Assembly (NCBI GenBank): GCA_043799105.1
Contig: JAZDOB010000012.1
Coordinates: 1,620 to 65,619 of the forward strand
Direction: 5' to 3'
DNA from: Candidatus Zambryskiibacteriota bacterium
GTDB taxonomy: Bacteria; Patescibacteriota; Minisyncoccia; Phycocordibacterales; WO2-35-19
Length of the DNA stretch: 64,000 nt
Position numbers and translations under genes: made by a program. Below are positions 21,749-49,857 of this stretch, piece by piece. The notes beneath the pieces were generated by a model, which did not search any database, was not told the DNA's origin, and saw only the letters and a program-made list of their open reading frames with translations. Within the stretch, counting starts at the first letter, position 1. Each line of letters starts with the position of its first letter.

Positions 21749-22480
21749 ATGGACGGCATAATGCGCTGTAGCAGATATTCTTTTGGGCCAAACCGCCTGC
21801 ATTATTGCGGGCCGGATGCCAACAAAGAATTGCACGATTTGATTGAAAGTGGAGAGAGTGATATTGGTTTATCTGTTTTGTTAAAACAATTCAAAACTCT
21901 TTTCCCTTATCTGCGATACATAGCCAAAGCAAATAATATTTCTGACCCTTTTGACGCGCGGGTGGTTGAAGCTTATTGGCTTGGCAATAGACTTTTGGAA
22001 AACATAGAAAGAAATACTCTATATAGTTTTTTGGTTGACGATCTAAAAGTTAAAGATAAACTGAAGAGCAAAGAGTTTTCTTGGCTGGAGGAGAAAATAA
22101 AGCAAGGAGCGGTGCCACATCATTCTTTTCATATATTAAATGTGTGGCTACAAGATGGTCACGGTGACGGTCTGGAAGCTCTGACGAGAATGGATGAATG
22201 TAGAATTTCCAGCGGGATAGTCACGGCCGTGAAAGGCCCTGAGATAATAGTTTCAACCGAGCCCCTCATATACACGGCTGGTAAATTTGCTCTCGGTGAG
22301 ACGGCCCAGAGAGCCCTAACGAGGCAACTAGAGGCCGAATACGATATAGAGCAGATAAAACCAGGCCAAATTGTCTCAATCCACTGGAGTGTGCCGTGCG
22401 AAGTCATCACTCAAAAACAGGCCGAAACTTTACGCAAATACACCCTAAAAAACATCGCTTTTGCCAATTTAACGATTTAA
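21749..22480 (+). CDS. conserved hypothetical protein with C-terminal HypC/HupF-like domain (inferred)
   Basis: The C-terminus ECRISSGIVTAV...IKPGQIVSIHWSVPCEVITQKQAETL parallels HypC (MCIGVPGQI...GQWVLVHVGFAMSVI). The roughly 150-aa N-terminal domain is unassigned. Confidence 0.45.
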   Translation: MDGIMRCSRYSFGPNRLHYCGPDANKELHDLIESGESDIGLSVLLKQFKTLFPYLRYIAKANNISDPFDARVVEAYWLGNRLLENIERNTLYSFLVDDLKVKDKLKSKEFSWLEEKIKQGAVPHHSFHILNVWLQDGHGDGLEALTRMDECRISSGIVTAVKGPEIIVSTEPLIYTAGKFALGETAQRALTRQLEAEYDIEQIKPGQIVSIHWSVPCEVITQKQAETLRKYTLKNIAFANLTI

Positions 22481-22489
22481 TAAAATAAA

Positions 22490-22861
22490 ATGAAAGTTTT
22501 TGTTTTTGGAAATGAGGATTTAAAGGGGGACAATTTGCCAATAAAAATTTTGCCCAGACTGCAAGATAAATTCCCGGAAATAAAATTTGAAATAAAAGAT
22601 CCAAATGAAGAATGGGAAGTTCCAGAAGAATTAATTATCTTGGACACAGTTGTTGGCATCAAAGATGTGAAAGTTTTTGATAATTTGGAAAAATTTTCAA
22701 AAACACCAAGAGTGGGAATGCATGATTTTGACGCTCTTACTAATCTTCGCTACTTGTGGAAGCTCGGCAAAATAAAAAAAATAAAAATTATAGGAGTACC
22801 AGCTGAAATGAACGAACCAGAAGCGGTTCAAAAAATAATTAAAACTTTAGAAAAACTCTAG
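22490..22861 (+). CDS. hydrogenase maturation endopeptidase (HycI/HoxW-like)
   Basis: MKVFVFGNEDLKGDN (GNxxxGDD-like), ILDTV Asp and GMHDF His match the three metal ligands of hydrogenase maturation proteases. Confidence 0.65.
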   Translation: MKVFVFGNEDLKGDNLPIKILPRLQDKFPEIKFEIKDPNEEWEVPEELIILDTVVGIKDVKVFDNLEKFSKTPRVGMHDFDALTNLRYLWKLGKIKKIKIIGVPAEMNEPEAVQKIIKTLEKL

Positions 22862-22886
22862 AGCGCCTCCTTTCGTCGGCGCCCTA

Positions 22887-23378
22887 CTAAATCCCCTCTC
22901 CTTTTTTTGTTTTTTTCCGCTCCTTCATCACTACTACTCGGCGATGGACCAAAACCTTCTCTCCAACCTTAAGTCCCCGGTGATATGAATTGGAACACGG
23001 AACAGATGATTCCTCGCCAAAAACTACAAAAACAATATTGTTGGTGATGAAATCAACTATGCCGACCCTCACCGCACACTCACTCTCGTGGCCGTGATGG
23101 TATCGCCAGGTCTTATAAACTGTCCCCGACGACCACTCTTTTTTCTCTTTCGCCTTGGACAACGCCAAATGGTTTCTTACTGCATTGGGAAAGTTTTTTC
23201 TCAAAAGAGAAATCTTCGGACTGGTCTTGTTTCGGAGATGTTTTTCCAAGACTTGGAAATCTTTCTCGCTGATTTTGTTAGCGAGCCGCAGGTCTTCCAT
23301 ACAAGGACCGGCAAAACGCAAAAAAAGCAGTAACCCGGACACATACTCTTCTCCGTTTATTTTTCTCGGCATAGACAA
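22887..23378 (-). CDS. hypothetical protein with C-terminal HypC-like domain (inferred), last gene of the hydrogenase operon
   Basis: ECAVRVGIVDFI...LKVGEKVLVHRRVVV follows the same pattern as 21749..22480 and HypC. Confidence 0.4.
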   Translation of the reverse strand: MSMPRKINGEEYVSGLLLFLRFAGPCMEDLRLANKISEKDFQVLEKHLRNKTSPKISLLRKNFPNAVRNHLALSKAKEKKEWSSGTVYKTWRYHHGHESECAVRVGIVDFITNNIVFVVFGEESSVPCSNSYHRGLKVGEKVLVHRRVVVMKERKKTKKGEGI

Positions 23379-23408
23379 GAGCTCCTTTCTTCCAATATAA
23401 CTATACCA

Positions 23409-24758
23409 CTATTCCTCTTTCCATTCAACCTTCAAAAAGTGCGAGGCGCAGGACATGCAGGGATCGTAAGCGCGAATGAACTTTTCAATTTCAAAGCCAA
23501 TCTTGGCTTTGTCCAGCGGCTTGTCCGGCATAGCTTTAGCGGCGTCGGAAGCTTTAGCGGAGTTGGACTTGTCAATTAACTGCTGTACCAACACACCGAT
23601 ATCTCTTTCTATGTTTATCTGATTTTGACCGGTAGGAACCACAACTTCTCCCGACTCTATTTTTCCATCTTTGCCGATAACAATTTTATGATAAAGAGTG
23701 CCGCGTGGCGCTTCGACTACTCCTATGCCGACGGCTCCTTCTTTTTCCTCTCCTTTTATAATTGGTTCGTGGGCAAATTTGTTGTTTGAAAGAATATCGA
23801 TAGACTCGTCTACGCTGTGCAATATTTCAATGGCCTGGGCCAGGTTGTTGTAATAAATATCGGTTGAAGGAAATAGGTTTAAGGCTTCTGTCGCTGATTC
23901 TTTTGTTTTTGAATGCAATTTATCTTTTGACAGATTTATGCGAGCCAGAGCGCCCACCATATAACCCTCGCCCTCGTATTTATATCCCATAGCTTCGGAA
24001 TACGGCACAACCGTGTTTTCAAGATGTGATTTAAAATCTTTTTCTTCGTATCTTTCGCCGGCGCTGGTCACTATGTTGCCGTTTATATAGCCAAAAATAT
24101 CATCCGGCGCCAATGCCATGTATTTTGTTTTTCTATCAAAATGGTCTGGAGCGTTTTTGAAAACTTCTATGAGGCGCAAGACGGCGGGTCTTATATTTTT
24201 TAATTTTTCTATTGCTTCATTTACACCGGCTTCATCTGGAAATTTAAGAAATCCGCCAATGACGGGAAAGGTGGCGTGAACACTTCGGCCGGCAATAAGA
24301 GTTGCCAAAAAGTTTCCTGCTGACTTTACTTCAAAACCATCGTGCAAAAGCTGGTGTTGAATCGGATCGCTTTCATCAAAATCAAGAAAAGCGTCTTTGC
24401 CAAAAATATCGGGCATTGAAAAAAGATAGAGATGAAGAGCATGATCACGGACCATAAGCCCGTGCATGACCAGAGCCCTTAATTTTTTTGTCTGTTCAGA
24501 CGGCTTGATGCCCAGGGCGTTTTCGCAAGCTTCAATACTGCACATAATGTGGGCGTTGGAGCATGTACCGCAAATGCGCGAAAGGTGAGCGGGGATAGAA
24601 TCAATATCTTTGCCTTTCATCGCTTCGGTGAAAAAACGTTTGTATTCGGTGATGGCAAACTTAACATCAGCGACTTTTCCATCAACCACTTTCAAATTTA
24701 ATGTGGCGTTGCCCTCAATTTTTGTAATGTGTTCTAAAGATAAATCAAAACTATGCAT
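23409..24758 (-). CDS. [NiFe]-hydrogenase large subunit (cytosolic group 3-like)
   Basis: N-terminal RICGTCSNAH (RxCGxCxxxH) and C-terminal DPCMSCASH, followed by a 9-aa tail for protease cleavage. Confidence 0.9.
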   Translation of the reverse strand: MHSFDLSLEHITKIEGNATLNLKVVDGKVADVKFAITEYKRFFTEAMKGKDIDSIPAHLSRICGTCSNAHIMCSIEACENALGIKPSEQTKKLRALVMHGLMVRDHALHLYLFSMPDIFGKDAFLDFDESDPIQHQLLHDGFEVKSAGNFLATLIAGRSVHATFPVIGGFLKFPDEAGVNEAIEKLKNIRPAVLRLIEVFKNAPDHFDRKTKYMALAPDDIFGYINGNIVTSAGERYEEKDFKSHLENTVVPYSEAMGYKYEGEGYMVGALARINLSKDKLHSKTKESATEALNLFPSTDIYYNNLAQAIEILHSVDESIDILSNNKFAHEPIIKGEEKEGAVGIGVVEAPRGTLYHKIVIGKDGKIESGEVVVPTGQNQINIERDIGVLVQQLIDKSNSAKASDAAKAMPDKPLDKAKIGFEIEKFIRAYDPCMSCASHFLKVEWKEE

Positions 24759-25233
24759 TTGAGCGTAATTCAGCTACTAATAAATTAACTTTTTCCAAAA
24801 ATACTTCTGGAGTCATAGGACAGCCGGGGATTTCCACGTCTACTTTTATAACATCGGAAACCTTTTTGACTTCAAGAAACATATTAAATTTGGCAACCAA
24901 AAAATCAACACTTTCTTTTTGCTCGGGAGTAAAAGTGTTGCGTTGAGCGGCTGGCAAGCCTGTAATAGCGCAAGCGCCCACAGCCACCACCTTTTTTGAA
25001 ATATTTCTTATTTCTTTTATTTTATTCTCTTGTTCCTGCGATGCCACTGCGCCTTCTATAAAAGCAATATCAAATTCATCAAAAGTATTTTTTGATTTTA
25101 AAACCCTGAAATGGCGAAAATCAAAAATCTTCTTCCATTCCTGCCAGTGGTCGTTCATAATCTCGGTCATCACTATCGTGTTGTCCTCACAACAACTAAA
25201 CGAAAACCACCCGATTTTGATTTTATTTTCCAT
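24751..25233 (-). CDS. [NiFe]-hydrogenase small subunit, minimal (proximal cluster only)
   Basis: The protein is 160 aa. Cys ligands FSCCEDN, GACAITG and PGCP fit the NuoB/HoxY-like 20-kDa family. Confidence 0.8.
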   Translation of the reverse strand: MENKIKIGWFSFSCCEDNTIVMTEIMNDHWQEWKKIFDFRHFRVLKSKNTFDEFDIAFIEGAVASQEQENKIKEIRNISKKVVAVGACAITGLPAAQRNTFTPEQKESVDFLVAKFNMFLEVKKVSDVIKVDVEIPGCPMTPEVFLEKVNLLVAELRSNA

Positions 25234-25255
25234 AAATCCAGTATATCACAGACGT

Positions 25256-25996
25256 TTATTTTAGAGTCCACCCACCGTCAACAACAATTACCTGACCGGT
25301 AATATAGTCTGATTGAGAAGAAGCAAGAAACACCACTGCGCTTGCTATGTCTTCTGGAAGACCGGCTCTTCCCCACGGGATTATTGTTGTCATCTGTTTT
25401 ATTGCTTCATCATTCATTCCTGCGCTTACTCCCGGTGTGTTTATAAGTCCTGGGGCTATGGCATTAACATTTATTTTTTTAGGCGCAAGCTCTAGAGCCA
25501 AAGCCCTGGTAAGCCCGTTTATTCCGCCTTTGGAAGCACAATAATGAGTCAAATTTTCAAAACCAATTAAGGAAGCTATGGAAGAGATAGTTACAATTTT
25601 GCTACCCTCCTTCATAATTTTAGCCGCTGCCTGTGAACAAAAGAAGACGCTTTTTAGATTAATATCAAGCACCTTGTCCCAATCAGATTCGGTGAGCTCC
25701 AAAAACGGTTTGAAGGGAAATATCCCTGCATTATTTACTAAAATATCCAATGCTCCGAACTTTTCTGTCGCCGTTTTGATAAGCGCGTCCACATCTTCTT
25801 TTTTTGAGACATCGCATTCTACTCCCACACATTTTGATTTTGTGAGTTCCTCTATTTCCCTGGCGGAATTTTCGTTTGCTGTCTTGTCCAGGTCGGCCAT
25901 GACCACATTGGCGCCCTCTTTGGCAAACGCTAACGCTATGCCGTACCCGATGCCTTTGGCTGCGCCCGTGACCACGGCTGTTTTATTTTTAAACAT
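25256..25996 (-). CDS. short-chain dehydrogenase/reductase (FabG-like)
   Basis: TGAAKGIGYG, NNAG and YCASKGG (YxxxK), plus PG..T. Confidence 0.85.
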   Translation of the reverse strand: MFKNKTAVVTGAAKGIGYGIALAFAKEGANVVMADLDKTANENSAREIEELTKSKCVGVECDVSKKEDVDALIKTATEKFGALDILVNNAGIFPFKPFLELTESDWDKVLDINLKSVFFCSQAAAKIMKEGSKIVTISSIASLIGFENLTHYCASKGGINGLTRALALELAPKKINVNAIAPGLINTPGVSAGMNDEAIKQMTTIIPWGRAGLPEDIASAVVFLASSQSDYITGQVIVVDGGWTLK

Positions 25997-26036
25997 AGTA
26001 CAAAAATAACTTATAATGCTATAATTATACTACTTT

Positions 26037-27482
26037 ATGAAAGATATATTCACTATAGGTGTGGGAGGGGCGGCGGGAGAGGGAGTCAAAAAGACCGGTA
26101 TTGATATTGGCAACTTTTTGAGTAGCTTGGGATTTCAGATTTATTTGTCTGTGGATTACCCATCGCTTATTCGTGGCGGGCACAATTTCGTCCGTTTAAC
26201 TGTCGGGGGTGAAAAAGTTTGGAATGATTATTCTAAACTTGATATTTTGGTTGCTTTAAACGAAGAAACCAAAGAGCTCCACAAAAACGAAATGAAAGAG
26301 AACGCTGTTGTACTTTCGGGGTTATCTACGGCTGAGGCCATAGAAAAGATAAAATCTGTTTTAAAAGAGAGAAATTTCGTGCCAGCCGACTCCGCCGAAG
26401 GCTCTGTCGTGCCAAAGAAGGAACTAATTGACGGAAATACGGCTTTTGCGAGAGGTCTGCAGGCGGCTGGGTTGGATTTTTATATTTCTTATCCAATGAC
26501 ACCGGCCACTTCCATTTTGCATTATTTGGCAAGCAAGCAAACCAAAGAAGGTTTGAAAGTCATACAGCCCGAAAACGAGATTGGTACTATCAATATGGCT
26601 CTTGGGGCGGTTTATGCCGGCAAGAGGGCGGCTGTCGGGACGGCGACCGGAGGGTTCGCTTTGATGCAAGAGGCGTTTAGTTTTGCCGGAATGGCCGAGC
26701 TCCCGCTCGTGGTGGCAGTAGCGCAGAGGCAGGCGCCGGCGACCGGGGTGCCGACACGCTCTTCCCAATCTGATTTGCGTTTTGCTATTCATGCTGGCCA
26801 TGGCGAATTTCCCCGGATTGTTTTGGCGCCCGGAGACCCGGAGGAAAGTTTCAAAACCGGAGCAGAGGCTCTCAATCTTGCCTGGAAGTTTAGAATACCA
26901 GTCATCGTCCTCATGGATAAAATTTTGTCTGAACATATGATGACGAGTAGCCTTGACGAAAGTTCTATTTCTGTGGAATTAAATAAAAGCATGATTTTCC
27001 CAAGTACACCGGACAAAGTGATAAAAGTGACGAGTTATGAGCACAGCGAGGATGGTATTACTACCGACAATGCAGAAGAAGTTAAAGAAGCATTTGACAA
27101 GAGATTTGCCAAAAATGATGAAATAGGAATGGAAATGCGAAGTAGAGAAACAGTTAAAATATTTGGCGACTCAACAAACGAAAACGCAGTTGTGTTTTTT
27201 GGTTCAACCAAAGGTCCAGTGTTGGAAGCGTCAAAATATTTTGATAAGCCGGCCAAACTCGTTCAGATAATTTGGCTTGAACCGTTTGATACTGAAAAAG
27301 TGAAAAAAGAATTAGAAAGTGCAAAAAACATAGTTTGCGTTGAAGGAAATCATGATGGCCAACTGGCATCATTGATAAGAGAAAGGACGGGAATTGAAAT
27401 TAAGGACAGAATTTTGAGATATGATTCATTGCCGTTTGATCCGACGGAATTAGCCAAACAAATAAACACATTATGGAAATAA
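26037..27482 (+). CDS. 2-oxoacid:ferredoxin oxidoreductase, fused gamma-alpha subunit
   Basis: The N-terminal gamma-like part is GVGGAAGEGVKKTG..YPSLIRGGHNFVRLTV..DILVALN. The alpha part follows: IDGNTAFARG..YPMTPATS. Confidence 0.85.
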   Translation: MKDIFTIGVGGAAGEGVKKTGIDIGNFLSSLGFQIYLSVDYPSLIRGGHNFVRLTVGGEKVWNDYSKLDILVALNEETKELHKNEMKENAVVLSGLSTAEAIEKIKSVLKERNFVPADSAEGSVVPKKELIDGNTAFARGLQAAGLDFYISYPMTPATSILHYLASKQTKEGLKVIQPENEIGTINMALGAVYAGKRAAVGTATGGFALMQEAFSFAGMAELPLVVAVAQRQAPATGVPTRSSQSDLRFAIHAGHGEFPRIVLAPGDPEESFKTGAEALNLAWKFRIPVIVLMDKILSEHMMTSSLDESSISVELNKSMIFPSTPDKVIKVTSYEHSEDGITTDNAEEVKEAFDKRFAKNDEIGMEMRSRETVKIFGDSTNENAVVFFGSTKGPVLEASKYFDKPAKLVQIIWLEPFDTEKVKKELESAKNIVCVEGNHDGQLASLIRERTGIEIKDRILRYDSLPFDPTELAKQINTLWK

Positions 27483-28279
27483 AAGATTTAGCTACAAAAG
27501 CAAAGATAACGTGGTGTCCGGGTTGTCCAAATTCGCAGATTTTGGTTTCTTTCAGAAAAACAATTACAGAGTTGGTAAACGAAGAAAAATTAAAACCTGA
27601 AAATCTGGTGGCTTTTGCCGGTATTGGCTGTCACGGCAAGATATCAGATTATCTGAATATAAACTCGTTTACTTCCCTTCACGGACGGCTCATTCCCGCT
27701 ATGACTGGCGCCAAATGCGCCAATCCGGCTTTGACTATTGTTGGTTTTTCGGGGGATGGGGATTCTCTGGATGAGGGTATCGAGCATTTAATTCACGCTG
27801 CCAAAAGAAATTCCGATATAAATCTTTTTATTCACGATAACCGTGTCTTTGCTTTAACCACAGGCCAGTTTAATGCCCTGAGCCCCAAGGGTTTTAAAAG
27901 CAAATCGGCTCCATTTGGGAGCGTTGAAGAACCGTTCAATCCTCTCCTTCTTATGCTTTCCGCTGGCGCCACTTTCGTGGCAAGAACATATGCCGGAGAT
28001 TTCGAAGGTACAAAAAAAATAATGCAGGCCGCTATAGCCCACAAGGGATTTTCGTTTGTAGATATTATCCAGCCGTGCATAACGTTTTTTGACACCAGAG
28101 ATTATTTTAAGGAGAGAATTTATTGGATAGATGAAAACTTTCCAAAGAATGATTTGAAAATGGCCATGGAAAAGGTCTCTGAAAAAACAAACGACCTGCC
28201 TGCGCAGACAGGAAAAGTTCCTCTTGGCATATTTTATCAAGTGGAAAAACCGACTTTTGAAGAAGAGTTATACAAATAA
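27473..28279 (+). CDS. 2-oxoacid:ferredoxin oxidoreductase beta subunit (TPP-binding)
   Basis: WCPGCPN, GIGCHGK and GDGDSLDEG..HDNRVFALTTGQ. Confidence 0.9.
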   Translation: MEIKDLATKAKITWCPGCPNSQILVSFRKTITELVNEEKLKPENLVAFAGIGCHGKISDYLNINSFTSLHGRLIPAMTGAKCANPALTIVGFSGDGDSLDEGIEHLIHAAKRNSDINLFIHDNRVFALTTGQFNALSPKGFKSKSAPFGSVEEPFNPLLLMLSAGATFVARTYAGDFEGTKKIMQAAIAHKGFSFVDIIQPCITFFDTRDYFKERIYWIDENFPKNDLKMAMEKVSEKTNDLPAQTGKVPLGIFYQVEKPTFEEELYK

Positions 28280-28281
28280 TT

Positions 28282-30321
28282 ATGGATTTAGAAAAATTTT
28301 TTAATCCAGAATCTATTGCGATAATAGGAGCGTCAAACGACAAAAATAAAATCGGCTATGCGCTGATGAAAAATCTGCTTGATGGGAAAAAAAGAAAAAT
28401 TTATCCCGTCACGCTTTCTGAGAAAGAAATATTAGAGATTCCCGCCTTTAAATCGATTTTGGATATTCCCGAGACGGTTGATCTGGCTCTCATTGCTGTC
28501 CGTGCCGATATTGTGTCGCAAGTTTTGACCGATTGCGGTAAAAAACAGATACCAAATGCCATCATCATTTCTTCCGGTTTTAAAGAAATCGGTTCTGCAG
28601 GGAAAGAGCTTGAAGAAAAAGTTGCCGATATTGCGCGAGAGCAAAACATTACACTTTTGGGCCCGAATTGTTTCGGTGTTATTGATACCAAAAACGATTT
28701 CAATGCTTCTTTTTCGGCTCAAAAGTCGCTTCCTTCCGGTAAAATTTCTTTTCTGTCCCAATCGGGGGCTTTGGGTTCTGCGCTTATAGATTGGGCTAAC
28801 GGCCAAGGGGTTGGTATTTCCAAATTTATAAGTTTGGGCAATGAAAGTTGTCTTACGGAGATTGAGTTTCTCGAATATTTGGAAAACGATCCGGACACAT
28901 CTGCGATTTTAATGTATCTTGAAAATGTAAAAAACGGACCAAAGTTTTTGGAGACCGTTGGTAGGATTACACCCAAAAAACCGATTGTCATCATAAAAGC
29001 GGGCATGGGTAGCCACGGAAATTTGGCCATTATGTCGCATACCGGCGCGCTTGCTCCGGAAGCCTCTGTGTTTATTGCAGCATGTAAACAAGCGGGAGCC
29101 GCAACAGTCTCATCCCTGCGGGCGTTTTTCCATCTGGTTAAAGTTTTGCCACAGGTGTTGGATGTGAGCACGCCGGTTCAGCGACTTATCATATTAACAA
29201 ATGGCGGCGGTCCCTCTGTCGTTGCGGCTGATCTTGTAGACCGCTCTCGCTCCCTCTCTTTGTCGGTCTTGAGCGAGGATATGAAAGAATCTTTGCGAAA
29301 AGTTTTGCCTCCTATGGCAGCGATTGGAAATCCGGTTGATATCATCGGTGATGCTTTGGCTGAGCGGTATGATAAGGCTTTGGAAATTTTATCCAGCGAT
29401 GAAAATACCGATGGAATTATAGTTATACTAACTCCGCAAATGATGACACAAGCCGAGGAGACGGCAAAAGTTTTGGCTAAATACAAAAATAAGAAAAAAA
29501 TATTTCCGATTTTCACCGGCGGTTCTTCAGTACAAGCCGGACGCGATGAACTTATTAAATCAGGAATGGCTTACTTCACCTTCCCGAGAGATGTCGTAGA
29601 GAGCTTGGATTATCTGGCAAAAGACATCCCCAAAATAAAATCACCATACGGGCATCACGGAGATTCAACAGAATCAGTATCAGAAAACGGGAAAATGATG
29701 GAGTTTTCAGGTGCGCTAAATTTGCTTTCCAAATATAATATTTCTGTCAGCGGGAAATTTGTAAAAGATAAAGATGAGTTGTACAACGTAGTTAATGAAT
29801 ATGATGGAAATGTTTTTGCCATGAAAATTATTTCTCCCGATATTGTTCATAAAACTGATAGTGGCGCGGTGGCTTTAAATATAAAAAATATAGAAGAGGC
29901 AAAGGAGGCGTGGGACAAAATGCGTGAAAAAAACAAAAAAGTAAATATCGAAGGTGTATTAGTCCAAAAAATGGAAAAGGGGAGAGAAATAATAATCGGC
30001 ATGAAGCGCAATATCACATTTGGCCCGACAATTTTGTTTGGACTGGGAGGCATTTTGGCCGAAGCAATCAAAGACACGGCGCTTCGCATCGCTCCATTCT
30101 CAAAAGAGGAAGCATTAAAAATGATGCAGGAAATAAAAGGTATTAAAATTTTGCAAGGTATGCGCGGCGAACCGTCAGTAAACTTTGATGCTCTCGCTGA
30201 CATTATTGTTAACCTTTCCCACCTCGCTCTCGAACATACAGAAATAAAAGAAATAGACCTCAACCCCGTTATCTGTTCTGAGAATTCCGCTACAATCGTA
30301 GATGCTAGAATAATGATTTAA
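28282..30321 (+). CDS. acetate--CoA ligase (ADP-forming), fused alpha-beta
   Basis: FFNPESIAIIGAS (CoA-binding), GPNCFGV and SQSGALG (phosphohistidine-loop region MSHTGAL), plus a C-terminal ATP-grasp domain. Confidence 0.85.
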   Translation: MDLEKFFNPESIAIIGASNDKNKIGYALMKNLLDGKKRKIYPVTLSEKEILEIPAFKSILDIPETVDLALIAVRADIVSQVLTDCGKKQIPNAIIISSGFKEIGSAGKELEEKVADIAREQNITLLGPNCFGVIDTKNDFNASFSAQKSLPSGKISFLSQSGALGSALIDWANGQGVGISKFISLGNESCLTEIEFLEYLENDPDTSAILMYLENVKNGPKFLETVGRITPKKPIVIIKAGMGSHGNLAIMSHTGALAPEASVFIAACKQAGAATVSSLRAFFHLVKVLPQVLDVSTPVQRLIILTNGGGPSVVAADLVDRSRSLSLSVLSEDMKESLRKVLPPMAAIGNPVDIIGDALAERYDKALEILSSDENTDGIIVILTPQMMTQAEETAKVLAKYKNKKKIFPIFTGGSSVQAGRDELIKSGMAYFTFPRDVVESLDYLAKDIPKIKSPYGHHGDSTESVSENGKMMEFSGALNLLSKYNISVSGKFVKDKDELYNVVNEYDGNVFAMKIISPDIVHKTDSGAVALNIKNIEEAKEAWDKMREKNKKVNIEGVLVQKMEKGREIIIGMKRNITFGPTILFGLGGILAEAIKDTALRIAPFSKEEALKMMQEIKGIKILQGMRGEPSVNFDALADIIVNLSHLALEHTEIKEIDLNPVICSENSATIVDARIMI

Positions 30322-31537
30322 GCTCGAAGTTTGGATCAGAAAGTTCTGATTCATGGCCCACGACTTTGAAATCAAGCTCAATGAGTTTGTTTATTGGTTG
30401 CAAATCTTGAGTACGGTTTATGAAAGTAGCGCCGATGATTTCGTTGTCCTTATCTACTATAATGCGAGCGAAAGAGCCAGATTCCGGCGAGCCCCTCCTT
30501 ATTACATTACAAGTTGGCTTACTACAAGCGTCTCCCGACACGGCGATATTCAATCCAAAACCAATTGATGAATAAAAAGAGACCATTTTAAACGGCTCGT
30601 GATTTCCCATCATATTTTTTGCTACAGTACGGCCTTGGGTTTGGGCATTAACCCAATTTCCAAGCTGAACTCTTTCGCCCAAAACCAAGTCATTAAACTC
30701 GGCCACATCTCCTGCCGCATAAATATCTGGAATGTTTGTTTCCAGATATTCATTTGCCAAAATTCCTCTGCCCGTTTCCACCCCAGCTTCTTTAATCCAA
30801 TCTAGATGACACTCAAGGCCGATGCCTATGAGCGCAAGCTGGCAGGGAATTTGTGTGCCGTCTTTCAAAATCACACCCTCAATATTTTCATTGCCAATAA
30901 TTTCTGAAACTTCACTTTCTCTTAAAATTTTTACCCCACCTTTTTCCATCGCCACCCCAATCATTTTTCCGGATTCTTCATCTAAAAGAGGATACCAGTA
31001 ATACGGCTCGCGCATGACGAGTGTCACTTCCAGCCCGGCCAGGCGCATCATTTCGCACATTTCAAAGCTTACAAATCCGGAGCCAATGGCTATTGCATGC
31101 TTGGCGCTTTTTACATTTTTTATCAATTCCTCTGCTTCTCTCAAATCTCGCAGGTAGCAGATGCCTTTTTTATCTGCTCCTGGAATGTTCCAACGCCCCG
31201 CTTCTCCCCCTGTGGCGAGCAAAAGTTTCTCATATTTTAAAATTTTTCCATCAGAAAGTTCTATTGTTTTATCTGCGCTGTTTAGTTTTTTAGCAAGAAC
31301 ATTTCCTATAAAATCTATTTTATTTTCTGTGTACCATTTCTCTTCACGGAGCCAGACACTATCAAAAGGTATTTTGCCCAAGAAAAAATTTGGCTTGGAG
31401 AGCATTATGCGGGAATACATTCGCGGCTCGTCGGAAACGATAGCGATACTCCCGTCTCTATCTTTTTGGCGTAAAGTCTCCGCGGCTGTTGTGCCAGCTA
31501 CCCCTCCGCCGATTATTAAGTATTTGTAACTGTCCAT
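30305..31537 (-). CDS. FAD/NAD(P)-dependent pyridine nucleotide-disulfide family oxidoreductase (ferredoxin/rubredoxin reductase-like)
   Basis: YLIIGGGVAGTTAAE, a second dinucleotide fold AIAIGSGFVSFE, and AAGDVAEF. Its ATG overlaps the ferredoxin stop. Confidence 0.75.
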   Translation of the reverse strand: MDSYKYLIIGGGVAGTTAAETLRQKDRDGSIAIVSDEPRMYSRIMLSKPNFFLGKIPFDSVWLREEKWYTENKIDFIGNVLAKKLNSADKTIELSDGKILKYEKLLLATGGEAGRWNIPGADKKGICYLRDLREAEELIKNVKSAKHAIAIGSGFVSFEMCEMMRLAGLEVTLVMREPYYWYPLLDEESGKMIGVAMEKGGVKILRESEVSEIIGNENIEGVILKDGTQIPCQLALIGIGLECHLDWIKEAGVETGRGILANEYLETNIPDIYAAGDVAEFNDLVLGERVQLGNWVNAQTQGRTVAKNMMGNHEPFKMVSFYSSIGFGLNIAVSGDACSKPTCNVIRRGSPESGSFARIIVDKDNEIIGATFINRTQDLQPINKLIELDFKVVGHESELSDPNFELKSLF

Positions 31538-31806
31538 TATTTTGGAAACACCTGCTTGCCTTCTTTATCAAACAAAAATATGGCTTTGGTTGGGCAAGAT
31601 TCGGCCGACATCATCAAAGTAGCATCATCCGCCGCGTTTGCGCCTGCGCTGGCGTTTGTAATAACCGCTTTATTTTCATTATCAAGCTCCCAAGTCTCTC
31701 CCGAAACGGCTATGCACGAAGCGGCGCCGATACATAAATCTCTATCAACAACTATCTTACTAATATTTGAACCTTCTTTATTGCGGGCATATTCTTTTGT
31801 TGCCAT
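31537..31806 (-). CDS. small ferredoxin, three-Cys type (probable [3Fe-4S]/[4Fe-4S])
   Basis: VDRDLCIGAASCIAV...ESCPTKAI gives CxxAxxC...CP, with the middle Cys replaced by Ala. Confidence 0.65.
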   Translation of the reverse strand: MATKEYARNKEGSNISKIVVDRDLCIGAASCIAVSGETWELDNENKAVITNASAGANAADDATLMMSAESCPTKAIFLFDKEGKQVFPK

Positions 31807-31812
31807 AATTTT

Positions 31813-31857
31813 AACCTCACCCCTTGCCCCTCTCCTAAATGCAGGAGAGGGGTTTGG
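31813..31857. repeat. Family A element, single-hairpin copy, intergenic
   Basis: aacctcacccc ttg cccctctcc taaatgca ggagagggg tttgg. Confidence 0.75.
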
Positions 31858-31868
31858 AAATAATTTTA

Positions 31869-32102
31869 TTAATTAATAACGACTTCTTTAACTTCCGGGA
31901 CTTCTTCTTTTATCATTCCTCCGAGCATTCCGCTAAACGTCTCATCTGCCATACCGCACCCAACGCAAGCCCCGCTTACTTTAAGTTTAACAATTTTATC
32001 TTTTATTTCCACCAAAGAAACATCACCTCCGTGCATTTGAATATACGGCCTCATCTTCTCTATAATTTTTTGTACTTTTTTTTGCATGTGAGAATTATAC
32101 AC
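31869..32102 (-). CDS. NifU C-terminal (Nfu-type) Fe-S cluster carrier
   Basis: IRPYIQMHGGDVSLVEI..GACVGCGM (CxxC). Confidence 0.8.
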   Translation of the reverse strand: MYNSHMQKKVQKIIEKMRPYIQMHGGDVSLVEIKDKIVKLKVSGACVGCGMADETFSGMLGGMIKEEVPEVKEVVIN

Positions 32103-32108
32103 TATTTT

Positions 32109-32231
32109 TCTAACCTTCTCCCTTCCTCTCCCTTACCTTAAGGGAGAGGTGACTGCATTCTGGAGTTCAACTGTTTAATAAATGTGTTGCGTGGTTCCCT
32201 CCTTAAAGTAAGGAGGGTTAGGGAGGTTAGA
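32109..32231. repeat. Family A palindromic element (two hairpins), intergenic
   Basis: Outer arms tctaaccttctccc / gggaggttaga. Hairpins ctcccttaccttaagggag and ccctccttaaagtaaggaggg. Confidence 0.85.
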
Positions 32232-32257
32232 AATCCTTATTTTTAAGTGTGTGATTT

Positions 32258-32917
32258 TCATTTCCCAAAATATTTTTCTTTATAAAATCTAATCAACTCT
32301 TCTACTTTAGGCAAACACTGCGGATAACCGATGCCGACTTTGGTGCGTTTTTGGACGGCGGCGAGAGTGGTGGCGCCTTCCAAGACGGCTTCTTCAATAT
32401 CGGCTTCTGTTGTGTTTGTGTTGGGATCCAAAATTTGAGCGCCGTCTACAACTATACGGCTGAATTGTTTTGTTTTTTTGAACCAGTCATTGAGGGCGGC
32501 TCGCAAAGCTTTGTCTCCCAAAACCGAGCAGTGGATTTTGCGATCAGGAAGTCCACCCAATCTTTTTATAATATCCTGCGGTTTTATCTGCAAGGCTTTG
32601 TCTATTTTCATACCGCCTTTTTCGGTGACCATAACGGAAAGCATAGAAGTAGAGGCGATAGCCGAAGCGCAACCAAATGTGCGCCATTTGAGTTCTTTTA
32701 TCTTGTCATTTTTTTTGTCTATTTTGAGCCACACCCTCATAACATCTCCGCAAGCGGGGGAACCGACAACTCCTTCACCGTCATATTTTGCTTTCCTCGG
32801 ATCTTCCAAAAGCAAATTTTTTGGTTTGAAAAAATGCTCACGCACTTGTTTTGTGTAAGCCCAAGAATCGCCGGTGTATTTATTAACGATGTCTGGTTTT
32901 TTATTTTGTTTTTTCAT
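32258..32917 (-). CDS. nifU: NifU/IscU-type Fe-S scaffold with BFD-like [2Fe-2S] domain
   Basis: GSPACGDVMRVWL, FGCASAIASTS and KIHCSVLG are the three scaffold Cys. A C-terminal BFD-like segment is present. Confidence 0.85.
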   Translation of the reverse strand: MKKQNKKPDIVNKYTGDSWAYTKQVREHFFKPKNLLLEDPRKAKYDGEGVVGSPACGDVMRVWLKIDKKNDKIKELKWRTFGCASAIASTSMLSVMVTEKGGMKIDKALQIKPQDIIKRLGGLPDRKIHCSVLGDKALRAALNDWFKKTKQFSRIVVDGAQILDPNTNTTEADIEEAVLEGATTLAAVQKRTKVGIGYPQCLPKVEELIRFYKEKYFGK

Positions 32918-34314
32918 TTTTTTGCTTGTCTCGCCGTAGCTTTTAGCGAAGGCGGATTATTTTTTCTTAAAAAGTGTAGCGTTTGTCCACCGACGAAGGC
33001 TCGCGGATCTGAAATTTTCTTTCTCTGGTTTAGACTGACATCGAGAGGCGAAATGTTTCTTAATATTTGGACGACTTTTGGTAAATGTTTAAGAACATAT
33101 TTTATATCTTGAATCGTGTTTTCTCTGCCAAGAGTGAAGCGAATACTGCCGTGAATATGTTCGTATGGACGACCGAGAGCCGTGAGGATATATGATGGCT
33201 CTAAACTTTGTGAATTGCAGGCGGAGCCGGTGGAGACCATTATACCAAGTTCGTCGAGATAAAGAAGCATCGCTTCGCCTTCAACATCTAAAATTGATAC
33301 GTTCAAAAAGCCGGGCAGGCGTTTATCGGGATGGCCGTTCAAGACGATTTTGGGTATGGATTTGAAAATTCCTTTTTCAAGAGTGTCGCGCATTTTTTTA
33401 ATCCGTGCCGATTCTTTTTTGCTTTCTTTACGGATGAGTTCTAGAGCTTTGGCGAAACCGACGATGCCGGGGACGTTTTCGGTACCGCTTCGCAGGTTGC
33501 CCTGTTGACCACCGCCAAAAATAATGGGGGAGATTTTTGTCCCTCTTTTTACATAAAGAGCGCCAACACCTTTTGGTCCGTAAATTTTGTGGGACGAAAT
33601 GGTCATCATATCCACACCAAGCTTGTTCATATCAATATCCATATATCCGGCGACTTGGCTGGCATCAGTATGGAAGTAGGGGACCTCACCCCAACCCCTC
33701 TCCTTGGCAAGGAGAGGGGCAAGGGGAGAGGACTTCTTAAATTCCTTGATTATTTTTGAAATTTCAGAAATTGGCTGGATAGTGCCGGTTTCGCTGTCGG
33801 CGTAAGTTATGGAAACTAGAATTGTTTTTTCGTTCAATTCTTTTTTGAATTCGTCCAAATCGATTAATCCATTTTTGCGGACTGGTAATTTTACAATTTC
33901 AAAACCCCGCCCGACCGAGTCATTCGGGCAGGCTTCTTTTTCCAAAACATCACAAACGGCCAAGATGCCCTTGTGCTCTATTTGTGACACGATTATTTTG
34001 GAAGCCAAAGTCGGACTTTGAACTGCCCCGGTCCCAAAAGTCCGACTTTGGCTTCCCCGGGCAACACCAAAAATGGCTAAATTGTCAGCTTCTGTTGCTG
34101 AACCGGTATAAAATATTTCATCGGGCCGGCAATTTAGAATTCCAGCTATTGTCTGGGAGGATTTGTCTATAGCATCTTTGGCTCTTCTGCTTAAACTATA
34201 CAAATTTGACGGGTTACCAAACTCTTTTTTGAAATACGGCAACATAACGGAAAAAACTCTCGGGTCAAGAGCTGTTGTGCCAGCGTGGTCAAGATAAATT
34301 CGTCTTTTGGACAT
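32914..34314 (-). CDS. nifS: cysteine desulfurase (NifS/IscS) with three in-frame repeat insertions
   Basis: IYLDHAGTT, SQIEHKG, SSHKIYGPKG (PLP Lys) and SGSACNS (active Cys). Confidence 0.9.
   Translation of the reverse strand: MSKRRIYLDHAGTTALDPRVFSVMLPYFKKEFGNPSNLYSLSRRAKDAIDKSSQTIAGILNCRPDEIFYTGSATEADNLAIFGVARGSQSRTFGTGAVQSPTLASKIIVSQIEHKGILAVCDVLEKEACPNDSVGRGFEIVKLPVRKNGLIDLDEFKKELNEKTILVSITYADSETGTIQPISEISKIIKEFKKSSPLAPLLAKERGWGEVPYFHTDASQVAGYMDIDMNKLGVDMMTISSHKIYGPKGVGALYVKRGTKISPIIFGGGQQGNLRSGTENVPGIVGFAKALELIRKESKKESARIKKMRDTLEKGIFKSIPKIVLNGHPDKRLPGFLNVSILDVEGEAMLLYLDELGIMVSTGSACNSQSLEPSYILTALGRPYEHIHGSIRFTLGRENTIQDIKYVLKHLPKVVQILRNISPLDVSLNQRKKISDPRAFVGGQTLHFLRKNNPPSLKATARQAKK
33684..33731. 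repeat. Family A element, single hairpin, 48 nt in frame inside nifS
   Basis: cctcacccc aa cccctctcc ttggcaa ggagagggg caa ggggagagg. Encodes SSPLAPLLAKERGWGEV on the minus strand. Confidence 0.8.
34000..34056. repeat. 57-nt perfect palindrome (20-bp arms) in frame inside nifS
   Basis: ggaagccaaagtcggacttt-gaactgccccggtccca-aaagtccgactttggcttcc. At 19 codons it encodes GSQSRTFGTGAVQSPTLAS. Confidence 0.9.
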
Positions 34315-36941: not shown

Positions 36942-36969
36942 TTGCAACAAGCCAAATTTTTGCTACAAT
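36942..36969 (+). promoter_or_regulatory. sigma70-like promoter for tRNA-Asn (TTGCAA-16-TGcTACAAT)
   Basis: The -35 box is at 36942..36947 and the extended -10 at 36961..36969, about 30 nt upstream of the tRNA 5' end. Confidence 0.55.
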
Positions 36970-36999: not shown

Positions 37000-37347
37000 T
37001 CCGGAGTAGCTCAGCGGTAGAGCGGCCGCCTGTATCGGTTAATGCAGCTTCCCAAAGAAATTTGGGATGAAAAACGAGGTGAATTCGGGGGAACCCAAAC
37101 TTTAAAAAGTGGGCAATCCCGAGCCAAGTCCAGCACCACTTTTGATTTTTAAAATTAGAAGTTAAAAGTGGTGCTGGGAAGGTGTAGAGACTATCCTTAA
37201 CGGAGTAGGACGTGATTGCGAAGCAATTTTACGTTCGAAGCCCCTCGCCCCTAAATCGAAAGACATGGGGATGATATAGTCCATGCTTCTAGTAATAGGA
37301 GATTAAATGTAAGCGGTTGGTCGTAGGTTCGATCCCTACCTCCGGAG
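37000..37347 (+). tRNA. trnN: tRNA-Asn (GUU) interrupted by a group I intron
   Basis: Exons 37000..37033 and 37310..37347 join to UCCGGAGUAGCUCAGCGGUAGAGCGGCCGCCUGU|UAAGCGGUUGGUCGUAGGUUCGAUCCCUACCUCCGGAG. This is a 72-nt cloverleaf with anticodon loop CUGUUAA. Confidence 0.85.
37034..37309 (+). ncRNA. group I intron (IC3-like), 276 nt, no ORF
   Basis: P1 pairs exon CUGU plus intron AU with AUGCAG (37042..37047), with U-G at the splice site. The intron ends in G. The core strings GUGAAUUCGGGGGAACCCAAAC, CCCGAGCCAAGUCC and GGGAAGGUGUAGAGACUAUCC match the Azoarcus and Anabaena tRNA introns as I recall them. Confidence 0.8.
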
Positions 37348-37377
37348 CTTAGTGATGATTTTAAGATAAAATCTTAG

Positions 37378-37407
37378 GCCGTCAGCAATGACGGCTTTTG
37401 ATTTTTT
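37378..37407 (+). terminator. Rho-independent terminator after tRNA-Asn
   Basis: Stem gccgtca/tgacggc followed by ttttgatttttt. Confidence 0.75.
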
Positions 37408-37534: not shown

Positions 37535-37936
37535 ATGCCTATCTGTAAAGAATGCAATGATACGGGTGTAATCGAAACCGGCAACAACGATATCCCCTGC
37601 ATATGCGTTGCGGGTGATACGGCATCATTCAATGTTGCGGGTGAAGGGTTATTGACCGGAGCACAAATCAAGAGTCGTGATGCTCTGCCCCAAATGCCTA
37701 CCATGTTCGGCAATCGCCGTGAGAATGATGTTGACTTTGAATGGGACAACGAAAGTGGTTGTTGGTGGAGTATTAATGAACAACAAGAAGTAAAAGTAAT
37801 TCCGCCAGCATCACCGAATGAATCCCAAGAGTGGACAATTCTGGTCGTTGAGACGGGTGAAGGATTCAGTTTTTCTGGTCATCGGGCGGAAAAAAGAGCA
37901 TTCGGAGCCGCTACTGTGTTTGCAAAGTCAAAATAG
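37535..37936 (+). CDS. hypothetical protein (133 aa), N-terminal Cys cluster
   Basis: AGGAGG Shine-Dalgarno. MPICKECNDTGVIETGNNDIPCICV. No family recognised. Confidence 0.5.
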   Translation: MPICKECNDTGVIETGNNDIPCICVAGDTASFNVAGEGLLTGAQIKSRDALPQMPTMFGNRRENDVDFEWDNESGCWWSINEQQEVKVIPPASPNESQEWTILVVETGEGFSFSGHRAEKRAFGAATVFAKSK

Positions 37937-44006: not shown

Positions 44007-45026
44007 TTGGGTATGACATTTTTTTCTAAAAAGCTAGGCATTGATTTGGGCACAGCCAATACCTTGGTTTTCGTGCCGGGCAGAGGGATAGTTTTAAACG
44101 AGCCCTCCGTGGTTGCTATTTCTCTTGAAGACAATAGAATTCTGGCGGTGGGCACCGAAGCCAAAACTATGATAGGGAGGACCCCGGAAGCTATTGTGGC
44201 TTACAGACCGATGAAAGACGGAGTAATTGCAGATTATAAAGTAACGGAAGCCATGCTTTCTTACTATATGAAAAAAGCTTTGGGCGGTTGGAGTTTTATA
44301 AAACCGGAAGTACTAATTAGTGTGCCGGCCGGAGTGACTTCTACCGAAAGACGAGCAGTGATAGAAGCTGCGATTAAAGCTGGAGCCAAAAATGCTTATG
44401 TGATCAAAGAACCAATCTTGGCAGCTATCGGTGCCGGTATCCCTATTTATGAAGCCAAGGGGCATATGATAGCCGATATCGGCGGAGGCACTACCGATGT
44501 GGCAGTCATTTCTTTGGGGGGTATCGTCTCGGCCATTTCGGTCAAATGTGCCGGCAACAAGATTGATGAAAGTATTATTGATTACATAAAAAAAACTTTT
44601 AATTTGGCGATTGGAGATAAAACGGCCGAAGATATAAAAATAAAAATAGGATCAGCCTTGCCCATAGATGAAGAACTTTCTCTGTTCATAAAGGGTCGAG
44701 ATTTAATTTCCGGTTTGCCGAGGTCGGTTGAAATTAAAACCAATGAAATAGTGAAGGCCATTTCCCGGGAATTACGGGAAATAATAAAAGCTATCAAAGA
44801 TGTCTTGCAGGAAACTCCACCCGAGCTTGCCGCGGATATCATAGATTACGGCATTATTATGACTGGCGGGACTTCCGCTTTGCGTAATCTTCCGGAGTTG
44901 ATTTTTAGAAGGATTGGAGTAAAAGCTATTATGGCAGAGGATCCTCTTTATTGTGTCGCCAAAGGCACCGGCATCGCTTTGGAACATCTGGGCGCTTATA
45001 AGAGAACCATAATTGCCAAAAGATAA
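44007..45026 (+). CDS. mreB: rod shape-determining protein MreB (paralog 1)
   Basis: LGIDLGTANTLVFV, VISVPAGVTSTERRA and IADIGGGTTDVAVISLGG. Confidence 0.9.
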   Translation: MGMTFFSKKLGIDLGTANTLVFVPGRGIVLNEPSVVAISLEDNRILAVGTEAKTMIGRTPEAIVAYRPMKDGVIADYKVTEAMLSYYMKKALGGWSFIKPEVLISVPAGVTSTERRAVIEAAIKAGAKNAYVIKEPILAAIGAGIPIYEAKGHMIADIGGGTTDVAVISLGGIVSAISVKCAGNKIDESIIDYIKKTFNLAIGDKTAEDIKIKIGSALPIDEELSLFIKGRDLISGLPRSVEIKTNEIVKAISRELREIIKAIKDVLQETPPELAADIIDYGIIMTGGTSALRNLPELIFRRIGVKAIMAEDPLYCVAKGTGIALEHLGAYKRTIIAKR

Positions 45027-48789: not shown

Positions 48790-49857
48790 ATGTTCAAAGA
48801 AAAATGGGAGGAATGGATGCGTATTTTGCGCAATGATATAGGCATTGATTTGGGGACAGCCAATATGCTGGTCTATGTTCGTGGCAAAGGGATTGTGCTA
48901 AACGAGCCCTCGGTGGTCGCGGTAAATCAAAAAACGGGGCAAGTTGTAGCCGTCGGAACAGAAGCAAAAAATATGATTGGCCGGACGCCACCACATATTG
49001 TTGCGGTACGGCCCATTGTTGACGGAGTGATTTCTGATTTTGAAGTGACGGAAGAAATGCTTCACTATCTTTTAAATAAAGCTCAAACTGTATCAAAAAA
49101 GATTTTAGGGCCGAGAGTGGTGGTGGGAGTACCTTCCGGCATCACTAATGTGGAAACCAGAGCAGTTCGAGATGCTACCAAAAATGCCGGAGCCAGTGAA
49201 GTACACATAATTGAAGAACCTATGGCAGCTGCAATCGGAATGCATTTACCCATAGAAGAACCGCTTGGCAATATGGTTATTGATATAGGGGGAGGCACAG
49301 CGGATATTGCCGTTATTTCTTTGGGTGGAGTCGTAAGTTCCAAAAATATACGTATAGCCGGGGATAAATTAAACAACGATATCGCTTCCTATATAAGAAG
49401 TGAATTCAAAATAGTGATTGGAGACAAAACTGCCGAAGATATAAAAATATCCATCTGCTCCCTTTTGCCGGAAGAAAATCTCATTGAGACTCAAGCCAGA
49501 GGTCGGGATCTTATCACCGGATTGCCGAGAGAAGTGGCGGTTACCGATTCTGACGTGAGAGATGCCGTATCGCACTCTATTGAAAGATTGGTGGAGGCCA
49601 CTAAAGAAGTATTGGAAATTACCCCGCCGGAAATACTCTCCGACATTATGCATCGTGGTATCCATTTAGCTGGCGGTGGAGCCCTTATGAAAGGATTTGC
49701 CAAGGTTTTGGAGAGAGAAATAAAAATGCCTGTTTACATTGCCGATGACCCCCTGACTTGTGTGGTTCGTGGCACCGGTATCATTTTGGAAAAGCTCGGA
49801 CAATTTAAAGATATATTAATTGCTGACGAAAATGACATTTCAAATAAAACACACTAA
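48790..49857 (+). CDS. mreB: rod shape-determining protein MreB (paralog 2, heads the mreBCD-mrdA operon)
   Basis: IGIDLGTANMLVYV, VVGVPSGITNVETRA and VIDIGGGTADIAVISLGG. An alternative start is at 48817. Confidence 0.9.
   Translation: MFKEKWEEWMRILRNDIGIDLGTANMLVYVRGKGIVLNEPSVVAVNQKTGQVVAVGTEAKNMIGRTPPHIVAVRPIVDGVISDFEVTEEMLHYLLNKAQTVSKKILGPRVVVGVPSGITNVETRAVRDATKNAGASEVHIIEEPMAAAIGMHLPIEEPLGNMVIDIGGGTADIAVISLGGVVSSKNIRIAGDKLNNDIASYIRSEFKIVIGDKTAEDIKISICSLLPEENLIETQARGRDLITGLPREVAVTDSDVRDAVSHSIERLVEATKEVLEITPPEILSDIMHRGIHLAGGGALMKGFAKVLEREIKMPVYIADDPLTCVVRGTGIILEKLGQFKDILIADENDISNKTH

Follow-up and report, generated by a model that had tools for sequence, protein, structure and literature searches.

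Complete genomes of Patescibacteria seemingly lack genes for tRNA-Asn and tRNA-Asp, an apparent absence that Nakagawa et al. (mSystems 2026; PMC13011429) attribute to group I introns inserted at 35/36, an unusual position. Here we describe such a locus in a 64-kb stretch of DNA (termed the window, to which all coordinates refer), where a tRNA-Asn(GUU) gene at 37000..37347 is split in its anticodon by a 276-nt insert. An earlier note on this DNA had read the insert as a group I intron of subgroup IC3 and knew of no Asn(GUU) host for such an element. We find the intron to be an ordinary member of the already published tRNA-Asn 35/36 class, a correct annotation of known biology. It is very probably a functional, self-splicing intron of IA type that carries no endonuclease gene and interrupts a monocistronic tRNA-Asn(GUU) between U35 and U36.

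A survey of 4,934 complete bacterial genomes recorded 28 introns at position 35/36, of which 19 reside in Patescibacteria and the remainder in Cyanobacteriota (3), Nitrospirota (3), Bacillota_A (1), Bipolaricaulota (1) and Pseudomonadota (1) (PMC13011429). Introns in tRNA-Asn(GUU) number 15 among 95 complete Patescibacteria genomes, and further examples at 35/36 of the same tRNA are described from Cyanobacteriota, Nitrospirota and Bipolaricaulota (PMC13011429); Asn(GUU) was thus a recorded host before this analysis. Two members, from GCA_016700035.1 (Asn) and GCA_001029755.1 (Asp), have been spliced in vitro in a GTP-dependent reaction with sequence-verified products, and mutation of the terminal intron G (omega-G) to C blocked exon ligation, the reaction stalling at the intron-3' exon intermediate (PMC13011429). 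Introns at 35/36 often lie in the sole copy of the tRNA, and intron-bearing and intron-less copies of one anticodon rarely share a genome (PMC13011429). The same paper cites tFind work as the earlier source of the class, there called 'Asn.4Ug'; the text of the tFind preprint (Williams 2020) describes 21 classes without naming Asn, its table being an image.

The sequence at 37000..37347 agrees in coordinates and letters with the earlier note, and the split was confirmed using ARAGORN, which with intron search enabled reports tRNA-Asn [37000,37348] (gtt) i(35,276). The 34-nt 5' exon (37000..37033, plus strand) comprises the 5' strand of the acceptor stem, the D arm, the 5' strand of the anticodon stem and residues C32, U33, G34 and U35, with the 5' splice site directly after U37033. 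The 38-nt 3' exon (37310..37347, plus strand), delimited by ARAGORN and by comparison with intron-less relatives, supplies U36, A37 and A38, the 3' strand of the anticodon stem, the variable loop, the T arm, the 3' strand of the acceptor stem and the discriminator G37347. When joined, the exons form a clean 72-nt cloverleaf with the anticodon loop CUGUUAA, which ARAGORN identifies as tRNA-Asn(gtt). The possibility that the two halves belong to different genes was considered and rejected. BLAST comparison of the spliced tRNA with E. coli genomes was uninformative, a plasmid tRNA-Thr being the best match (77%), and intron-less tRNA-Asn genes of relatives served as the reference instead. The split gene escapes both ARAGORN at default settings and the Rfam tRNA model, which report only tRNA-Trp, tRNA-Leu(CAA) and tRNA-Glu(CUC) in the window. 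As the earlier note had stated, no second tRNA-Asn was found within the 64 kb.

The insertion point, CCUGU|a...g|UAAGCG, falls between U35 and U36. Sliding both splice sites together through the anticodon loop, one of eight registers yields a U at position -1, an omega-G and a GUU anticodon, and in this sole register the intron ends in G37309, a residue that is invariant in the alignment described below. An alternative reading would make the gene a tRNA-Thr(UGU) with an intron at 33/34. ARAGORN makes this call for at least 23 metagenomic loci and for the split genes of two related genomes (L003 and L028; reported as tRNA-Thr(tgt) i(33)), and both ARAGORN and tFind often mis-call the class in this way (PMC13011429). 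In the window, however, the corresponding -2 register places A rather than G at the omega position, and the reading was rejected. The guide GCAG pairs with CUGU such that the wobble lands on U35, the body of the tRNA matches intron-less tRNA-Asn genes, and ARAGORN itself says Asn at this locus. We therefore regard a tRNA-Thr(UGU) identity as having next to no chance of being correct.

Sequences on either side of the tRNA-Asn gene resemble transcription signals. A promoter-like site (TTGCAA-16 nt-TACAAT with an upstream TG; 36942..36969, plus strand) lies approximately 30 nt before the tRNA 5' end, the consensus scan having found 5 sites in the region versus 1.7 expected. An intrinsic-terminator-like hairpin, AGGCCGUCA-GCAA-UGACGGCUU followed by a T-run (37376..37407, plus strand), is located 29 nt past the tRNA. 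The presence of these sites on both sides suggests that the gene may be a monocistronic unit.

The insert itself (37034..37309, plus strand) matches the Rfam model Intron_gpI (RF00028) at 37044..37302 on the plus strand, spanning the full model (1-253) with 62.3 bits against a gathering threshold of 50 and an E-value of 2e-13. Together with homology and covariation, this match bears out the group I identification made in the earlier note. No open reading frame (ORF) of homing-endonuclease size is present in the intron, again as claimed earlier; the longest run without a stop codon spans 65 codons and lies on the opposite strand. An endonuclease-bearing intron was considered as a candidate and rejected.

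We sought the conserved fold in an alignment (A1) of 40 tRNA-Asn introns comprising that of the window, three published members and 36 of metagenomic origin. A helix model was derived by hand from the window row and then mapped onto the alignment. All elements are on the plus strand. P1 (37030..37047) pairs exon CUGU (37030-37033) and the first two intron residues, AU, with AUGCAG (37042-37047), giving the 6-bp helix CUGUAU/AUGCAG that the earlier note had proposed, with the U37033.G37044 wobble at the 5' splice site; its CUGU/GCAG portion is invariant in 40/40 homologues. The P1 loop CGGUUA (37036-37041) could in addition pair with UAAGCG of the 3' exon to form P10 (5/6 pairs). P2 (37050..37067) is a UCCCAAA/UUUGGGA hairpin (37050-56 with 37061-67; compensatory changes in 7/7 pairs) capped by a GAAA tetraloop, L2, at 37057-37060. 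The 5' strand of P3, CGAGGUG (37075..37081), pairs with CCCCUCG (37241..37247), and by alignment pair count four of its seven pairs change on both sides with 97.5% of cells paired. P4 (UUCGGG/CCCGAG; 37084-37089 with 37118-37123; 5/6 pairs compensatory, 99.2% paired) encloses P5 (CCCA/UGGG; 37094-37097 with 37110-37113; 3/4 compensatory).

P6 and its extension occupy 37124..37182, where the CC/GG of P6 (37124-25 with 37181-82) is prolonged by P6a, a 15-bp stem (37129-37143 with 37164-37178) whose outer pairs covary and whose 20-nt loop is rich in A and U. The earlier note had recognised this long hairpin, which it took for a peripheral element; it is an extended P6 and not a free-standing peripheral domain. 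The 5' strand of P7, GACUA (37189..37193), pairs with UAGUC (37277-37281), is invariant in 40/40 sequences and forms a pseudoknot with P3. We take P7 to be the guanosine-binding site. Precisely between P7(5') and P3', the window carries a 46-nt insertion relative to RF00028, which folds as two hairpins: P7.1 (UCC/GGA; 37194-37196 with 37202-37204; 1/3 pairs compensatory, 100% paired) and P7.2 (GACGU/ACGUU; 37209-37213 with 37231-37235; 5/5 compensatory, 89% paired). P8 (CCCC/GGGG; 37248..37270, strands 37248-51 and 37267-70) shows compensatory changes in 3/4 pairs. It is followed by J8/7 (AUGAUA) and the 3' strand of P7 (UAGUC) at 37271..37281, a block, GAUAUAGUCC, that is almost invariant in the alignment. 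P9 (CUUCUA/UAGGAG; strands 37286-91 and 37296-301, 5/6 pairs compensatory) closes on a GUAA tetraloop, L9 (37292-37295), and the tail AUUAAAUG leads to omega-G37309, completing the element 37286..37309. The terminal intron G and the UAA that follows it are invariant.

Across the alignment, standard pairs occupy 90.8% of 2,468 cells, compared with 71.9 +/- 0.6% in shuffled controls, of which 0/500 reached the observed value, and slid helix registers gave at most 44% paired. Changes on both sides of a pair were detected in 44 of 68 pairs, and the covariation score was 0.464 versus 0.142 in shuffles. The aligned sequences are related to one another, the independent evidence being the compensatory counts in the 39 sequences other than the window. 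Compensatory changes occur in every variable helix, P7.1 and P7.2 included. The invariant helices are P1, P6 and P7, in keeping with an exon-defined guide and a catalytic core. Covariation thus supports a conserved P3-P9 core containing the P3/P7 pseudoknot.

The peripheral loops of the family co-occur with receptor-like motifs. L2 is GAAA in 6/7 sequences possessing a CCUAA...AUGG motif in P8, and L9 is GAAA in 9/9 sequences possessing a CCUAA...UAUGG motif in P5 (Fisher p = 0.003 and 0.015 for loop and receptor co-occurrence, phylogeny being ignored). The window combines L2 = GAAA with a P8 interior, CCUAAA...CAUGG, that resembles the 11-nt GAAA-tetraloop receptor. Because of this known motif, the loop and receptor set of the window appears to fit an Azoarcus-like pair of peripheral contacts, and tertiary contacts of L2(GAAA) with P8 and of L9(GUAA) with P5 are probably formed.

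A number of features weigh against reading the window copy as a functional IA-type intron. L9 is GUAA and P5 presents plain CC:GG pairs, unlike the commonest combination of receptor and GAAA loop. P3 contains a U-C mismatch where the family has U.G (the column is unpaired in 3/40 sequences), and a 15-bp P6a is atypical, stems longer than approximately 10 bp being found in only 1-3 of the 40 homologues aligned. Because the helix model was derived from the row of the window itself, the slid-register control is inflated, although the compensatory counts in the other sequences are unaffected. Finally, the IA assignment was made from architecture and homology. The structural irregularities, the mismatch in P3, the unusual P5/L9 combination and the length of P6a, are what might be seen in a decayed, non-splicing relic within a tRNA-Asn pseudogene, the functional tRNA-Asn being encoded elsewhere in a genome of which 64 kb are in view. 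Against this, 65 alignment columns are invariant (by definition including the window copy) and a further 25 nearly so, both exons are intact and their fold is perfect, and the promoter-like and terminator-like sites are kept. An intron-less tRNA-Asn elsewhere would also make the genome one of the rare cases of coexisting copies noted above. We consider decay to be very unlikely, and a functional IA-type intron remains our preferred interpretation.

The earlier assignment to subgroup IC3, with the Azoarcus tRNA-Ile and Anabaena tRNA-Leu introns as models and the additional sequence as merely a peripheral insertion, was based on three core strings. These do resemble introns labelled IC3 (Tables S4 and S5 of PMC13011429) in the segments P3-P4, P4'-P6 and J6/7-P7(5'): an exact copy of CCCGAGCCAAGTCC is present in an Acidobacteriota Ile2 intron labelled IC3 (Table S5), and the J6/7-P7 string AAGGTG[TC]AGAGACT is common to the window intron and the Nostoc tRNA-Leu intron. 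The likeness is confined to the 5' two-thirds of the intron, and GGGAAGGUGUAGAGACUAUCC, formerly placed in J8/7-P7, corresponds to P6'-J6/7-P7(5'). A permissive global pairwise alignment did not separate IA from IC3 introns by identity; structural criteria and a stricter alignment were used instead. By the latter, identity to IC3 examples is 0.54-0.55, not far below that to IA-labelled homologues.

In IC3 introns P3' directly follows P7 with no P7.1 or P7.2. In the window, two hairpins that covary across the 40 sequences occupy this position, and the spacing from P7 to P7' is 83 nt. The Nostoc tRNA-Leu intron, of IC3 type, has 39 nt here, and the compact introns discussed below have 41-50 nt. 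Extra helices between P7 and P3' are a hallmark of IA-type introns. Published homologues in tRNA-Asn at 35/36 are labelled IA1 (Bipolaricaulota and Nitrospirota) or IA2 (one cyanobacterial example) (Table S5, PMC13011429). Furthermore, none of the tRNA introns of Patescibacteria is of IC type, 25 of the 28 introns at 35/36 are IA, and a P7.1 helix is drawn in Fig. 2a of that paper (PMC13011429). Given the two additional helices and the labels of its homologues, the intron is best assigned to the IA type, and membership of IC3 appears unlikely.

Membership of the tRNA-Asn 35/36 class was assessed by comparison with ten published Asn introns (sequences from Table S3, PMC13011429), with which the window intron is collinear. 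Shared blocks in the 5' part include the GCAGC guide, P2 with a GNRA loop, GAAAAAC-GRGGUGAAUU-P4, GGYAAUCC-P4'-GCCAAG and GAAGGUKYAGAGACUA. Those in the 3' part are the extra hairpins, GAAGCGCC-P3', P8, GAUGAKAUAGUCCA, P9 capped by a GNRA loop, and a tail whose final G precedes UAA. In stringent global alignments the intron is 0.61-0.63 identical to the Paceibacteria introns of GCA_026016225.1, GCA_016699245.1 and GCA_025999335.1, 0.57 identical to the in vitro-spliced Saccharimonadia intron of GCA_016700035.1, and 0.47-0.51 identical to the compact type.

A subtype motif located after P7, AAGGTKYAGAGACTATYCY, is common to the window and the three published members from Paceibacteria, and this 19-nt pattern retrieved at least 120 stretches from metagenomes. 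In at least 44 metagenomic tRNA-Asn(GUU) genes, an intron of 216-342 nt interrupts the anticodon at 35/36 (43 from the pattern scan and one recovered later). Introns bearing the motif also reside in tRNA-Phe(GAA) at 33/34 (at least seven loci: L086, L102, L117, L145, L156, L170 and L172), in tRNA-Asp(GUC) at 35/36 (at least two: L105 and L126) and in tRNA-Leu(UAA) at 34/35 (at least one: L151); the remaining matches are incomplete stretches or have no host tRNA assigned. No near-identical copy of the window was present among the metagenomic matches listed. Separately, two metagenome-assembled genomes (MAGs) of Patescibacteria encountered outside the pattern scan (L034 and L037, from the NifS scan described below) carry a related intron in tRNA-Phe at 33/34.

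By analogy with the homologues spliced in vitro (GCA_016700035.1 and GCA_001029755.1), the window copy would be catalytic. In the mechanism that we propose, the precursor would be transcribed between a promoter and a terminator of its own, and the intron would fold into a canonical P1-P9 core stabilised by P7.1 and P7.2, the extended P6 and, probably, the L2-P8 and L9-P5 contacts. The guide GCAG (37044-37047) would pair with exon residues C32-U33-G34-U35, making U37033.G37044 the wobble pair of the 5' splice site, whereupon exogenous guanosine bound in P7 would attack after U37033. Omega-G37309 would next take the same site in P7 and the freed 3'-OH of U35 would attack after G37309, ligating the exons into a mature 72-nt tRNA-Asn that would still require CCA addition.

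Many group I introns require protein help in vivo. A genuine group I intron might accordingly depend here on a host chaperone or maturase-like protein, or on particular conditions, with splicing serving to regulate the supply of tRNA-Asn; regulatory roles for such introns have been speculated upon by Nakagawa et al. (PMC13011429). Two members of the class nevertheless self-splice in vitro with GTP alone (PMC13011429), the window intron encodes no protein, and no sign of a cofactor is seen in the window. Such dependence is in our view distinctly unlikely, and autonomous self-splicing is favoured. Since sole-copy cases have been reported (PMC13011429), it is plausible that splicing would be essential for the supply of tRNA-Asn in this organism.

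To place the host, NifS (encoded at 32914..34314, minus strand) was scanned against 185,579 species genomes. Seven relatives were found at 62-75% identity, all of them MAGs of Patescibacteria and one a Candidatus Zambryskibacteria (Patescibacteria group; Parcubacteria group). Below these seven, identity drops to 51% or less. The closest genome, L001 ('Patescibacteria group bacterium'), is syntenic with 21962..32919 of the window at 74-78% nucleotide identity. Because of these NifS relatives and this synteny, the host is judged to be a Patescibacteria member of Parcubacteria/Paceibacteria type, a lineage in which the intron class is enriched, although not exclusive to it. The window has the gene content of a chromosome like those of the candidate phyla radiation (PriA-Def-Fmt, NifS, TopA, RelA/SpoT, SerRS, ProRS, LysRS, Mur ligases, penicillin-binding proteins and two MreB) together with a NiFe hydrogenase, pyruvate:ferredoxin oxidoreductase and ADP-forming acetate-CoA ligase. 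Most of its proteins score far below NCBIfam equivalog cut-offs.

The same relatives reveal differing states of the insertion site. L001 (287-361, minus strand) and L005 (9222-9296, minus strand) possess an intron-less tRNA-Asn(GTT) divergently upstream of NifS, matching the spliced tRNA of the window at 66/72 and 58/72 positions, respectively. Conversely, tRNA-Asn is split at 35/36 in L003 (8994-9256, plus strand) and L028 (3224-3512, plus strand) by compact introns of 190 and 216 nt without P7.1 or P7.2. The exons of L003 agree with those of the window at 70/72 positions, the two differences being compensatory, while the exons of L028 are identical to the intron-less tRNA-Asn of L005 and so provide a clean pair of empty and occupied sites. 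RF00028 scores 39 bits for the L028 intron and gives no match at E <= 1 for that of L003; both are homologous to a published intron from GCA_030583765.1 (0.65-0.66 identity). The window gene lacks an encoded CCA at its 3' end (37345-37350, GGAG|CTT), as does that of L003, and the intron-less genes of L001 and L005 encode it.

An empty site and two intron types at one position among relatives provide a modest hint of turnover. The relatives compared have NifS identities of 66-75% and near-identical tRNA-Asn exons. We raise only tentatively the idea that endonuclease-less tRNA introns of Patescibacteria may be gained, lost or replaced at a single site on short evolutionary timescales, and consider it doubtful at present. 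If true, the routes could be reverse splicing or homing in trans driven by HNH-bearing relatives, and rapid turnover would contradict the published inference of limited horizontal movement.

Several neighbouring genes deserve mention. Just downstream of the tRNA, a 133-aa ORF (37535-37936, plus strand) has a good ribosome-binding site and encodes a protein with a Cys-rich N-terminus (MPICKECNDTG...), for which there is no NCBIfam match and no relative in the 185,579 species genomes. In a single 507-aa ORF at 819-2342 (plus strand), an N-terminal HTH_3 (XRE-type) domain is joined to a full-length EPSP_synthase/MurA-type domain; the ORF may be an unusual fusion or the product of an over-extended start codon. 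Two full-length MreB/Mbl paralogues (44007-45026 and 48790-49857, plus strand) are less than 5 kb apart, with an M50 protease, ProRS and genes for peptidoglycan synthesis on their flanks.

The practical consequence of the locus concerns annotation. Because default tRNA finders (ARAGORN without -i, Rfam tRNA) miss the split gene, the genome would look devoid of tRNA-Asn, and a tRNA missed in this manner lowers the completeness scores of Patescibacteria MAGs, a point already made in PMC13011429. The gene adds one more case in which a sole-looking essential tRNA gene in a reduced genome would depend on ribozyme self-splicing. It opens no new question, the mildly new angle being the empty site and two intron types at the same position in related genomes.

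The window intron thus stands closest to the published Asn 35/36 class, with which it shares the host tRNA, the GUU anticodon, the U35|U36 site, U(-1).G, omega-G, the GCAG guide and the phylum, as well as the usual want of an endonuclease gene, a collinear P1-P9 architecture with extra helices after P7, and invisibility to standard tRNA finders. The window intron differs in its sequence, which is new, no near-identical copy having turned up among those searched, in its 15-bp P6a, in its GUAA loop L9 and in its P5, which lacks the 11-nt receptor motif. Within the class, the window and Paceibacteria members carry two short hairpins after P7, P7.1 and P7.2, whereas a single long hairpin is present in members from Saccharimonadia, among them the in vitro-spliced intron. 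The compact introns at 35/36 (GCA_030583765.1 Asn, GCA_016699995.1 Tyr and GCA_023898525.1 Asp, with L003 and L028) are found in genomes closely related to that of the window's organism and share the site and the CUGU/GCAG P1, but they are shorter (190-216 nt), lack P7.1 and P7.2, differ in J3/4 and P4'-P6, reach no more than 39 bits with RF00028, and show the lowest of the identities given above. The IC3 introns of Azoarcus tRNA-Ile(CAU) and Anabaena-Nostoc tRNA-Leu(UAA) are likewise small, ORF-less introns of self-splicing type in a bacterial tRNA anticodon loop, with very similar P3-P4-P6 and J6/7-P7 core strings and, probably, a similar periphery of GNRA loops and receptors. They differ in their host tRNAs, in their sites (36/37, 33/34 or 34/35 as opposed to 35/36) and in having no helices between P7 and P3', whereas the published label of the class to which the window intron belongs is IA.

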